Positions 60,612 to 64,000 of a stretch of 64,000 nucleotides of DNA are shown here, in pieces (position 1 is the stretch's first letter; each line of letters begins with the position of its first letter). The notes below the pieces were generated by a model. That model had not been told where the DNA came from. It was given only the letters and a program-made list of their open reading frames with translations, and searched no databases. This stretch comes from Escherichia coli. GTDB lineage: Bacteria > Pseudomonadota > Gammaproteobacteria > Enterobacterales > Enterobacteriaceae. Both the position numbers and the translations under genes were made by a program. The stretch lies in NCBI RefSeq assembly GCF_036507355.1, contig NZ_AP027877.1. One strand, given 5' to 3'.

Positions 60612-60692
60612 AAATACTCCCGCTATCAACTGACGCTAGTATAACGGAAGCAAATCATCTGCAATGCATTAAGCAGCAGGCAAATTGAGGAT

Positions 60693-60719
60693 AAAAAAAA
60701 CCCCCACATCATGTGGGGG
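60693..60719 (-). terminator. rho-independent terminator (minus strand)
   Basis: Hairpin CCCCCACAT C ATGTGGGGG with A8 on plus strand (T8 on minus strand), about 100 bp downstream of the 170-aa ORF. Confidence 0.75.
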
Positions 60720-60818
60720 AAGACAGGGATGGTGTCACAAAAAAGCACCTAACCTGATGATATAAATGGATTTATGTCAACCGCTGTCCACATAGCGTCC
60801 ACATCGTTCAGCGTCCGT

Positions 60819-61331
60819 TTAATCGGACGCTTTTAAATTTTTATTTTTCCCAGCAGAAAAATTAGCTTTCCCGCTGTTTTGCAACTCAACAAGAGGAGAT
60901 AACCGTCGGTAAACAGCCAAAAGTATCTTTAACTGAACCAGTTCATCTGCCCCCGATAGTTGAACCAAGTTTTTACGTTGTTCTTCACTAAGTGCCATCA
61001 CAGATTCAAGTGATTTAACTGCGTCAGAAACAAGTTCAATCTCTTTAATTTGATTCTGTATACGCAGCTTCTCTGATTTCAACTTTGCCCATTCTCTTTG
61101 TCGATATGTACGCATCACCTGATCGTAAACTTTGTTGGCAGCCAGAATACTTCCACCAACAGCAGTAACTAACTCAGCAATCTGCCAAGAGATATCAATA
61201 AGAGCAGACAATTCAATAAAGCCAGGAGAGGCATACTGAATTTTTTTCACTACAGGACGTAAATCTGGTGGAGTCGCACTGTAAGCCCCTCTAAAAAAGT
61301 TCACCACACTGTGCCCACCCTCCCAAGGCAT
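60819..61331 (-). CDS. hypothetical protein (170 aa; predicted coiled-coil C-terminal half, no signal peptide)
   Basis: AT-rich ORF with AGAGGA SD 9 nt upstream of ATG; own terminator; IS lies about 35 bp upstream of start. Confidence 0.6.
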   Translation of the reverse strand: MPWEGGHSVVNFFRGAYSATPPDLRPVVKKIQYASPGFIELSALIDISWQIAELVTAVGGSILAANKVYDQVMRTYRQREWAKLKSEKLRIQNQIKEIELVSDAVKSLESVMALSEEQRKNLVQLSGADELVQLKILLAVYRRLSPLVELQNSGKANFSAGKNKNLKASD

Positions 61332-61365
61332 TGTTGAATATCCTCTTGATCCTCCTTTTAGGCGC

Positions 61366-62431
61366 TGAATTTACAATCCAAGTGCAACAAAAAAAGAAGT
61401 ACTCATCAACTAGAATATAATTTTGTTTCCACACAAAAACCACTTCCAAATGATGAGTACTTCCTACCGACATCTTACAATAAACGAGCGAGAAAAGATA
61501 ATGATTTTACTCGCACAGGGCAAAAAACAAGCAGAAATTGCCAAAGCACTGGGACGTAGCTCCAGCACCATTTCTCGCGAGCTGAAACGACACGCTCTAG
61601 AAAGCTACAGTGCAACGAACGCACAAAACAGCTATTTGAAGCATCGTCAAAATAGCAAAGCACAGCGCAAATTAGAGCAGCCTGAATATTTCAATTTGGT
61701 GCAAGAAAAGTTTCTGACAGAAAACTGGTCGCCCGAACAAATCAGCGCACGATTAAAATTGGAAAAATCTGAATTATCCATTAGTTATTCAACCATTTAT
61801 CGTGGTATTTATTCAGGGTTGTTTGATATAGGCGAACGCAAAGCCAGTCGCAAACTGCGCCACAAAGGCAAAACACGGCATACAAAAAATCATCATGAAA
61901 AACGTGGCAAAATTCAGATATCCAACCATTTGAACGACCGTCCCATTTCGGCGCAAAATCGCAGTCGCTTTGGACATTGGGAAGCCGATACCGTACTGGG
62001 TAAAGCGGGTGGAGCTTGTTTGCTGACGCTGACGGAACGCAAAAGTCGTTTTGAGTTGGTGAAGAAAATTCCTGCCAAAAAAGCCGAAGCAGTCCAAAAA
62101 GCCATGATTGAATTGCTGGATTCACATATATTGCGGTCAATTACGCCAGACCGTGGTAAAGAATTTGCCCAACATCGTTTGGTAACAGAAGCACTGGGTG
62201 TAGAATTTTACTTCCCCGAGCCGCATCAACCGTGGACACGGGGAACGAATGAAAATACAAATGGGTTACTTCGTGAATACTTTCCGAAGCACCAAGACAT
62301 CAATCAGTGGAGCGAAGTTGATATTCAACAGGTGATCAATAAACTGAATTTACGACCACGTAAATGTTTAGGTTGGAAAACACCTTATGAAGTTTACTTC
62401 AAAAAATCGTTGCACTTGGTTTGACAATTCA
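61366..62431 (+). mobile_element. IS30-family insertion sequence (about 1.07 kb; ISApl1-like by size)
   Basis: Imperfect terminal inverted repeats TGAATTTACAATCCAAGTGCAAC (left) and GTTGCACTTGGTTTGACAATTCA (right) flanking a single transposase ORF; boundaries +/-3 bp. Confidence 0.75.
61423..62424 (+). CDS. IS30-family DDE transposase
   Basis: N-terminal HTH (TINEREKIMILLAQGKKQAEIAKALGRSSSTISRELKRH), GHWEADTV and NENTNGLLR motifs; first codon of track ORF is TTG, true start probably internal. Confidence 0.85.
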   Translation: MFPHKNHFQMMSTSYRHLTINEREKIMILLAQGKKQAEIAKALGRSSSTISRELKRHALESYSATNAQNSYLKHRQNSKAQRKLEQPEYFNLVQEKFLTENWSPEQISARLKLEKSELSISYSTIYRGIYSGLFDIGERKASRKLRHKGKTRHTKNHHEKRGKIQISNHLNDRPISAQNRSRFGHWEADTVLGKAGGACLLTLTERKSRFELVKKIPAKKAEAVQKAMIELLDSHILRSITPDRGKEFAQHRLVTEALGVEFYFPEPHQPWTRGTNENTNGLLREYFPKHQDINQWSEVDIQQVINKLNLRPRKCLGWKTPYEVYFKKSLHLV

Positions 62432-62433
62432 AG

Positions 62434-62532
62434 GCCATAAAAAAAACCATATAGCTGCAAATACTCTTTCGTTAAGACCGCGAAATCAGCTAACTCCCAA
62501 CGATTATCAAGCTCAATTATAACTTTTTCCAT
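62434..62532 (-). other. short ORF (33 codons, MEKVIIELDNRWELADF...) with GGTGG SD that runs into the IS right end; possible truncated gene 5' end
   Basis: ATG at 62532 on minus strand, open until the IS boundary. Confidence 0.3.
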
Positions 62533-62636
62533 TTTCCACCAACCTGTCCAACTTTAAAGATTGACTTTTAAGTATATGATAAACATAGTTTATTAAACGT
62601 GATCCACTACTTTTAATGAAGAATATTCCCCAAAAC

Positions 62637-62663
62637 AGAAAGCCCCTCGACTGAGGGGCTTTC
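62637..62663. terminator. bidirectional hairpin terminator
   Basis: AAAGCCCCTC GACT GAGGGGCTTT with T-rich flanks on both strands. Confidence 0.6.
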
Positions 62664-62672
62664 TGTTTGTAA

Positions 62673-62771
62673 TTACATCCACATAATTTGCTGCCCTGAC
62701 GGCAACGGGTGCGGTCTTACGGCGTGGACTTCTCCCGGCTTGTCCAGGGTAATGACATTTTCTTTGTTCAT
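62673..62771 (-). CDS. small ORF (32 aa, MNKENVITLDKPGEVHAVRPHPLPSGQQIMWM)
   Basis: ATG start, ends just before the hairpin terminator; no recognisable homology. Confidence 0.25.
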   Translation of the reverse strand: MNKENVITLDKPGEVHAVRPHPLPSGQQIMWM

Positions 62772-62931
62772 GGTTTTCTCACTTCTGAATCAGGGTTAAC
62801 CGGCCAGCCAGGCTGACCGGATGAAAATCACAGGCCGATATTGCGGCGGTGTTGCTCCAGCCGGTCGACGCCGTTCACCTTCTCAATCATGTTGATGGTG
62901 TCAATTTCGACCAGCTCCTTACCGTCCATCG

Positions 62932-63138
62932 TCAGCCGGAAATAACCCATTTTTCACCGGCACGAGCCTTCGGTTTGCAAGGATCACGCAATTCAATAAT
63001 TGGTAATTTATTTGCCTTCACCATTTCACTGACGGCTGTCTTTGGCTTCCCTAATAAATCAGCAAATTTATCCACATGAACCGCATCAAGCGGATACTGA
63101 ATCACATAATTTTCAGCGTCCATATATGGTACCCTCAT
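62932..63138 (-). CDS. excisionase-like / small winged-helix DNA-binding protein (putative Xis)
   Basis: 68-aa ORF divergent from the HTH-integrase pair; FADLLGKPKTAVSEMVKANKLPIIEL segment resembles excisionase-type winged helix; family assignment tentative. Confidence 0.45.
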   Translation of the reverse strand: MRVPYMDAENYVIQYPLDAVHVDKFADLLGKPKTAVSEMVKANKLPIIELRDPCKPKARAGEKWVISG

Positions 63139-63198
63139 AGGATCCAGCCCTTTCTAAACCACTCAAAACCGTTTAGACGCTGGTTTATTCTCAAATCA

Positions 63199-63250
63199 AT
63201 GGAACCTATATAGGTTCCAGTTTTGAGGGAATTTAGTCCCTATATAGGCA
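63199..63250. promoter_or_regulatory. operator-like palindromes (CCTATATAGG core, two copies) in divergent promoter region
   Basis: GGAACCTATATAGGTTCC perfect 18-bp palindrome (63201-63218) and CCCTATATAGG (63238-63248), plus degenerate CCCTCATAGG at 63132-63141 overlapping the xis-like start codon. Confidence 0.6.
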
Positions 63251-63259
63251 CCATGTCAA

Positions 63260-63553
63260 ATGAAATTAAGCGAAAAGATTAAGGCCTTGCGTGAGGCTGA
63301 AGGGCTAAGCCAATCAAAATTCTGTGAAATCATAGAGTTACCGCTAAGCACACTTAAAAAATATGAAGGAGGAAACTTTGAACCCGGTGGCACAGCTTTG
63401 CTAAAAATCACTATGCATCCCACATTCCAAAAATATGCTCTATGGCTTATGACAGATAAAACCGCGCCGGACGCAGGACAAATCGCACCGGCTCTCGCGC
63501 ACATTGGGCCAGAGTCAACAGAGTCCAACCACTCCGAGAAAAGGATTGGATAA
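63260..63553 (+). CDS. XRE-family (Cro/CI-type) HTH transcriptional regulator
   Basis: 97 aa; LSEKIKALREAEGLSQSKFCEIIELPLSTLKKYE is a typical Cro/C1 HTH. Confidence 0.75.
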   Translation: MKLSEKIKALREAEGLSQSKFCEIIELPLSTLKKYEGGNFEPGGTALLKITMHPTFQKYALWLMTDKTAPDAGQIAPALAHIGPESTESNHSEKRIG

Positions 63554-63622
63554 CTCTATATAAAGATTACATTTTCACCATTTGCTACCAAGATGGTGAA
63601 TACAGCGCCGGAGGGCTTTCTT

Positions 63623-64000
63623 ATGGCAATTAAGAAGCTCGATGATGGTCGCTATGAAGTGGACATTAGACCTCGCGGTCGCGACGGAAAACGCATCCGC
63701 AGGAAATTCGAAAGAAAAGCTGAAGCACTAGCATTTGAGCGATACACAATCGCCAATGCCAGTCAGAAAGAATGGGGAGGCCAGCGAGCAGACCGCCGGA
63801 CTTTGAGTGAGTTGCTGGACATCTGGTGGAAATATCACGGGCAAAACCACGAGCATGGAACAAAAGAGTTTAATCATCTACTCAAAACCATCAGCGGCAT
63901 AGGTGATATACCAGTGAACAGGATGAGCAAAAGGGCTTTGATGGATTATCGTTCCATGCGACTACGTGATGGTATCAGTGCCGCAACGATAAACCGTGAC
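63623..64000 (+). CDS. tyrosine-type site-specific integrase, N-terminal part (truncated by window end)
   Basis: GGAGGG SD 8 nt upstream; 126 codons open to window end; MAIKKLDDGRYEVDIRPRGRDGKRIRRKFERKAEALAFE is a typical arm-type DNA-binding N-terminus; not in the ORF track because there is no stop in the window. Confidence 0.75.
   Translation, partial: MAIKKLDDGRYEVDIRPRGRDGKRIRRKFERKAEALAFERYTIANASQKEWGGQRADRRTLSELLDIWWKYHGQNHEHGTKEFNHLLKTISGIGDIPVNRMSKRALMDYRSMRLRDGISAATINRD

Follow-up and report, generated by a model that had tools for sequence, protein, structure and literature searches.

Two short open reading frames (ORFs) that overlap on the minus strand, near one end of a 64,000-nt stretch of Escherichia coli DNA (hereafter the window), raise the question of whether they represent one gene broken by a frameshift, a gene with a small overlapping neighbor, or neither. 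An earlier note, made from the letters alone, had described the first of these (ORF1) as 68 aa long and ending at TGA 62932-62934, and both the ORF list and the sequence place it there (62932-63138). It had also placed a second ORF (ORF2) in the -1 frame inside the 3' end of ORF1 and running down to 62828. The sequence is exactly as quoted and the start lies 188 nt past that of ORF1 (188 mod 3 = 2, the -1 frame), but the heading of the note gave 38 codons where the ORF list gives 40 (62828-62950). The two ORFs overlap by 19 nt, spanning GGTGAAAAATGGG, and a GAAAAATGGG stretch is found in the overlap region. Given that 47 ORFs of at least 25 aa were listed within the surrounding 4 kb, the geometry of this overlap means little alone; it is homology that lifts the pair above chance.

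By protein alignment, residues 6-65 of ORF1 were identical (60/60) to residues 1-60 of the Cox protein of KC618326 (Peduovirus magyaro, a cdt-carrying 'Escherichia phage P2' from E. coli O157:H43 T22). ORF1 was also matched to the Pfam family Phage_Cox (PF10743; 51.4 bits, cut-off 27.5) over profile positions 7-57 of 87, and to PHROG 272 (E = 1.5e-25) over positions 1-60 of 90. The Pfam match and the identity to an annotated Cox bear out the excisionase-like label that ORF1 had been given. Its score is above the threshold for P2-type Cox proteins, but the full length, with helices alpha3-alpha4, is not there. The position is that of cox in KC618326, P2 and WPhi, where it opens the early operon next to int and is read in the direction opposite to C. 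The mechanical 68-aa ORF begins at 63138, 5 codons upstream of a second ATG at 63123. This second ATG is likely to be the true start, giving 63 codons rather than 68, since a GAGGG Shine-Dalgarno-like sequence lies upstream and the start is so annotated in homologues.

Intact Cox homologues are 90 aa long and carry on in the ORF1 frame as FIPEFNRAVREAFYNRPVEQRDAWLLWMGL. A full-length homologue was aligned to P2 Cox (PDB 4LHF, E = 3.8e-20), a homologous winged-helix excisionase/repressor. In P2 Cox, oligomerisation is largely due to the C-terminal helices alpha3-alpha4, and function is abolished in the W81A, W84A and R73A/R78A mutants (PMC3936717). The window product (Cox') ends at the equivalent of P2 residue 57, without alpha3-alpha4 and without equivalents of R73, R78, W81 and W84. 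Given that all of these essential residues are missing, Cox' is predicted to be non-functional. By analogy with P2, the 63-aa protein would keep its winged-helix part but probably could not oligomerise or form the filament for excision or Pc repression.

The second ORF belongs to a different gene. Residues 3-40 of ORF2 were identical (38/38) to residues 135-172 of P2 gpFII, which are its extreme C-terminus, and ORF2 matched Pfam Phage_tube (PF04985) at 56.3 bits (cut-off 22.4) over positions 129-165 of 165. The score exceeds the threshold for FII, but the complete tube domain of about 165 positions is lacking, which makes ORF2 a gene fragment; the PHROG matches of ORF1 and ORF2 are also partial. 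If translated, the product is a fragment of the tail tube for which no function is expected, and ORF2 is most likely non-functional as a gene.

The point at which the two genes meet (junction D1, Table 1) was located by a similarity search using window 63300 to 62470, minus strand, as the query. Over bases 1-357 of the query (window 63300-62944), many P2-like phages and prophages matched at 100% through their C-cox region, and bases 357-566 (window 62944-62735) were 98-99% identical to P2 19257-19466, an interval that runs from the end of FII through the FII-E spacer into the beginning of E. The BLAST breakpoints fell at 62944 from both sides. Compared base by base, the cox parent reads ...GGTGAAAAATGGGTT|TTCATT and the FII parent ...GTCTGCACC|TATTTCCGG, while the window reads ...GGTGAAAAATGGGTTATTTCCGG. 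Past D1 the cox frame continues as ATT TCC GGC TGA (I-S-G-stop), and upstream of D1 the FII frame is open only as far as ATG GGT, which is out-of-frame cox sequence. Both ORFs and their overlap are explained by this join.

The locus is very probably a deletion scar in a defective P2-like (Peduovirus) prophage at the WPhi-type site between cpxP and fieF. The segment deleted at D1 corresponds to 24,120 nt (KC618326 1847-25966), which in the intact prophage hold the 3' third of cox, orf78, the replication genes B and A, cargo genes, cos, every head, lysis, baseplate and tail-fibre gene, FI, and FII as far as codon 134. Illegitimate recombination with 1 nt of microhomology would have removed these approximately 24 kb and fused cox codon 60 out of frame to the last 38 codons of FII. 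The cox frame would then enter FII sequence for 3 codons and stop, leaving ORF1, and the FII frame would reach back to an accidental ATG in cox, creating ORF2. ORF1 and ORF2 were never a single gene.

Table 1. Features of the prophage remnant and its surroundings (window coordinates; "reading" denotes segments given in the direction in which they are read)
Feature	Coordinates	Strand	Description
P2-type int gene, 5' part	63623..64000	+	126 open codons, runs off the window; matches KC618326 int
int'-C-cox segment	64000-62944	- (reading)	KC618326 790-1846, 99.7%; 100% over the last 357 nt
C immunity repressor gene	63260..63553	+	Intact, 97 aa; Pfam HTH_3; PHROG 147, positions 3-100 of 100; annotated C protein in KC618326
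Pe-like early promoter	63230..63259	-	TTGACA-18-TAAATT, from promoter scan; placed to drive cox'
Truncated cox	62932..63123	-	Codons 1-60 of a 90-codon P2-type Cox gene + 3 junction codons (I-S-G) + TGA
Junction D1	62943..62945	.	cox codon 60 joined to FII codon 134/135; T at 62944 common to both parents
'FII-spacer-E' segment	62944-62735	- (reading)	P2 19257-19466, 99.0%
ORF2 chimaera	62828..62950	-	40 codons: ATG-GGT of out-of-frame cox, then FII 3' end
FII 3' end	62828..62944	-	Last 38 codons + stop; P2 19257-19373, within the 99.0% identical 210-nt segment 62735-62944
FII-E intergenic spacer	62772..62827	-	Contiguous with P2 19374-19429
E'-'ogr fusion ORF	62673..62771	-	32 aa: E codons 1-10 + junction codon K + last 21 ogr codons
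Junction D2	62735..62741	.	E joined to ogr; BLAST segments overlap by 7 nt
'ogr + terminator segment	62741-62639	- (reading)	P2 24186-24288, 98%
ogr/F-operon rho-independent terminator	62639..62662	-	Aligned with the terminator annotated at P2 24265-24288
ISApl1 (IS30 family)	61362..62431	+	99.5% identical to plasmid copies; bounds set against uninterrupted PSS-08-1
attP arm + 47-nt att core	60806-60690	-	100% to KC618326, 98% to the WPhi ogr-int intergenic region

A second junction (D2) lies downstream. By comparison with P2, the segment between the two junctions (window 62944 to 62735) includes 117 nt from the end of FII and 37 nt from the start of E. A further deletion, of about 4.7 kb (P2 19467 to about 24192), would have fused E codon 10 to the ogr end, and the base-by-base comparison revealed microhomology of AA, one mismatch, and CCGG. 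Compared with P2 gpE and Ogr, the join is in frame and yields MNKENVITLD-K-PGEVHAVRPHPLPSGQQIMWM. This fusion ORF is preceded by the native E ribosome-binding region (GTGAGAAAACCATG) and has none of the Ogr zinc-finger cysteines. Insertion of the FII-E fragment was considered instead, but two deletions account more simply for the collinear order.

The remainder of the element is that of a cryptic prophage. P2-like DNA within the 64-kb window is confined to 60612-64000 and lies in prophage order, int (5' end seen)-C-Pe-cox'-'FII-E'-'ogr-terminator-cargo gene-att. The retained fragments are collinear and co-oriented with the intact prophage, essential genes are missing, and replication, capsid and tail genes are absent. 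An att sequence lies at a known site with int at the far end, the att copy being seen at the fieF end only. The att core (60690-60736) and attP arm (60737-60806) form a phage-chromosome junction adjoining fieF. The 47-nt core is repeated at both ends of the KC618326 prophage, and it is also present in WPhi and between cpxP and int in strain PSS-08-1 (NZ_AP027676). In both PSS-08-1 and E308 the same int-C module lies directly downstream of cpxP. The P2-like prophage Wphi1 of E. coli W is integrated at cpxP-fieF, and the cryptic P2 remnant of E. coli K-12 is listed in the same source (PMC3032704).

The control region upstream of cox' holds two direct CCTATATAGG repeats on the minus strand (63239-63248 and 63205-63214), which are set 34 nt apart on either side of the Pe-like promoter's -10 hexamer. 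By analogy with P2 O1/O2, these are probably the C-repressor operators of the KC618326-type immunity region. The repeat at 63205-63214 is inside a perfect palindrome, TGGAACCTATATAGGTTCCA, which was flagged as terminator-like in the scan. At the other end of the phage genes, the sequence around the ogr terminator (window 62672 to 62630) folds into a 16-bp hairpin (-28.3 kcal/mol).

Between the ogr terminator and the att arm lies a cargo gene encoding a 213-aa 'hypothetical' protein, of which an intact copy is present in PSS-08-1 (L003 3518-4159). The cargo gene had no Pfam or PHROG match, and it matched PADLOC PD-T4-10_B (E = 1.3e-34) over profile positions 139-346 of 353, which makes its product a candidate anti-phage defence protein. 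ISApl1 splits the gene (62432-62532 and 60819-61361, minus strand) and this defence candidate is knocked out. The element is the sole ISApl1 copy in the window and has an apparent target duplication of AG; ISApl1 is known for mobilising mcr-1. It was rejected as the cause of the deletions, as it is separated from the two junctions by about 300 nt and 500 nt, and neither junction contains IS sequence.

As every virion and replication gene is missing, the remnant cannot produce phage. It would be locked in the chromosome in a C-expressing state, probably unable to excise unaided, and the intact C repressor may still confer immunity against phages of the same immunity type. A further possibility is that the remnant is a retained immunity module, in which C and the winged-helix half of Cox lock the lysogenic state and protect against the common phages of the same immunity type or disturb their Cox-dependent excision or P4 activation, the cox'-'FII and E'-'ogr ORFs being translated by-products. 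This was considered unlikely, with a small chance of being correct.

The distribution of the junctions bears on the other explanations. Of the 5,426 complete E. coli genomes, 718 carry an intact 273-nt cox of this type (413 at >= 99% identity), in every case annotated as a 90-aa Cox family protein; in E308 it sits within a complete early operon at cpxP-fieF. Megablast with junction-spanning queries found neither D1 nor D2 in the 5,426 complete genomes. A 33-nt sequence across D1 had no exact match in the metagenome and representative-genome collections, and an exact-product lookup found no record of the 68-, 63-, 40- and 32-aa products of the junction ORFs. The exact junction allele is unrecorded, while the kind of feature, a prophage deletion scar, is well known and ordinary.

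Given that D1 and D2 are unique to the window sequence and rest on one assembly, the assembly might have fused reads of one or more P2-like prophages in the sequenced strain into a chimaera, and such prophages are hard to assemble when a strain has two (PMC3032704). Mis-assemblies arise across long shared repeats, however, and at D1 the parents have just 1 nt in common, at D2 just 2 nt (6 of 7). The fragments moreover follow the phage order and finish with a proper terminator and att site, and the window contains no P2 DNA besides these. In PSS-08-1, a remnant of this prophage type at the same site arose by a deletion of its own, which shows that such decay takes place there. An assembly artefact was accordingly regarded as quite improbable.

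The earlier note had allowed that ORF2 might be an overlapping small gene. It is very improbable that ORF2 is a genuine gene of this kind with its own function, translated by coupling or from a weak Shine-Dalgarno-like GGTG. The GGTG does lie 4 nt before the ATG of ORF2, and transcription from the Pe promoter could cover the ORF. The start codon, however, is accidental cox sequence and serves this ORF only through the deletion junction, and the intact C repressor should keep Pe repressed. The peptide corresponds to the final fifth of a tail-tube protein whose partner genes are gone, and the junction and product are absent from all collections searched, which speaks against conservation.

The frameshift that the earlier note had proposed, with a gene of about 105 aa cut into two ORFs by the gain or loss of one base in the A5 run, is extremely improbable. 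An indel would indeed place a second ORF at the A5 run in the -1 frame, as ORF2 is placed, but the run and the next 6 bases, through base 62944, are identical to intact cox, and similarity to cox ends abruptly at 62944 rather than at the A run. ORF2, furthermore, is 100% identical to the C-terminus of the unrelated gpFII. The alignment of homologues that the note had called for gave neither single ORFs of about 105 aa nor proteins ending at the ORF1 stop, as intact Cox is 90 aa long and continues in the ORF1 frame. The suspicion that the gene had once been longer was correct in that ORF1 is shortened, and wrong as to a single precursor of about 105 aa. The counter-sign that the note had named, homologues that share the ORF1 end and a downstream frame that is not conserved, did not come about either: the homologues stop elsewhere, and the ORF2 frame is conserved, though solely as part of a different gene. 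Programmed -1 ribosomal frameshifting from ORF1 into ORF2 has next to no probability, despite the -1 overlap beside an A-rich run and the -1 frameshift that P2 itself has in E/E+E', given that no X-XXY-YYZ heptamer fits the ORF1 frame (GGT GAA AAA TGG GTT), as the note had already recognized, that the two halves belong to unrelated genes, with about 24 kb between them in each of the intact relatives examined, and that the genuine E/E' site (P2 19685) falls within the segment deleted at D2.

With the locus read as a deletion scar, ORF1 should be annotated as a truncated cox pseudogene and ORF2 as an FII gene fragment, neither being a small overlapping gene or a frameshift. The importance beyond correct annotation is slight. 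For scans that use sequence alone, the case is a caution that short overlapping ORFs beside a homopolymer may mark a deletion that has brought together genes from far apart, and comparison with intact relatives by similarity search resolves such cases at once.

Among known systems, the remnant resembles KC618326 in its int-C-cox module (99.7% identical, cox codons 1-60 being the same), and it shares with KC618326 and with intact cpxP-fieF prophages such as that of E308 the 47-nt att repeat and the chromosomal site. KC618326-type elements, however, are complete 31-kb phages with a 90-aa Cox, whereas the remnant lacks about 24 kb and about 4.7 kb. Its ogr end is nearer to P2 (98%) than to KC618326 (90%), and it has an extra cargo gene between ogr and att, which KC618326 and WPhi lack at that position. 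WPhi (Wphi1 of E. coli W) shares the cpxP-fieF site and an att arm and core that are 98% identical, and its Cox, also 90 aa, agrees with the intact KC618326-type Cox in the C-terminal 30 residues. Unlike the remnant, WPhi is intact, and its int-C-cox DNA is only 77.6% identical. The P2 remnant of K-12 (ogr-D' at the cyaR site) is likewise what internal deletion has left of a P2-like prophage, a short stretch with ogr sequence and a single att end, but it is located at another chromosomal site, keeps D'-ogr, and has no int-C-cox.

A parallel is seen in PSS-08-1, in which a remnant at cpxP-fieF has an int-C region 99.9% identical to that of the window and an ogr 3' end, cargo gene and att that are 100% identical. 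Its deletion is independent, running from the cox start codon to ogr codon 6/7 with TATG microhomology. In PSS-08-1 (L003 3140-3380), ogr has lost 6 codons from its start, among them that of the first zinc-finger cysteine, and what remains is fused to cox at the start codon, so that it follows immediately on the Pe promoter and the cox ribosome-binding site. In RefSeq this gene is ogrK, starting with ATA. The complete genome of strain GZ2408P gave a match row identical to that of PSS-08-1. The PSS-08-1 remnant differs from that of the window in having no cox', FII or E fragments and no ISApl1. Given that a prophage of the same type at the same site was independently deleted in PSS-08-1, decay at cpxP-fieF recurs.
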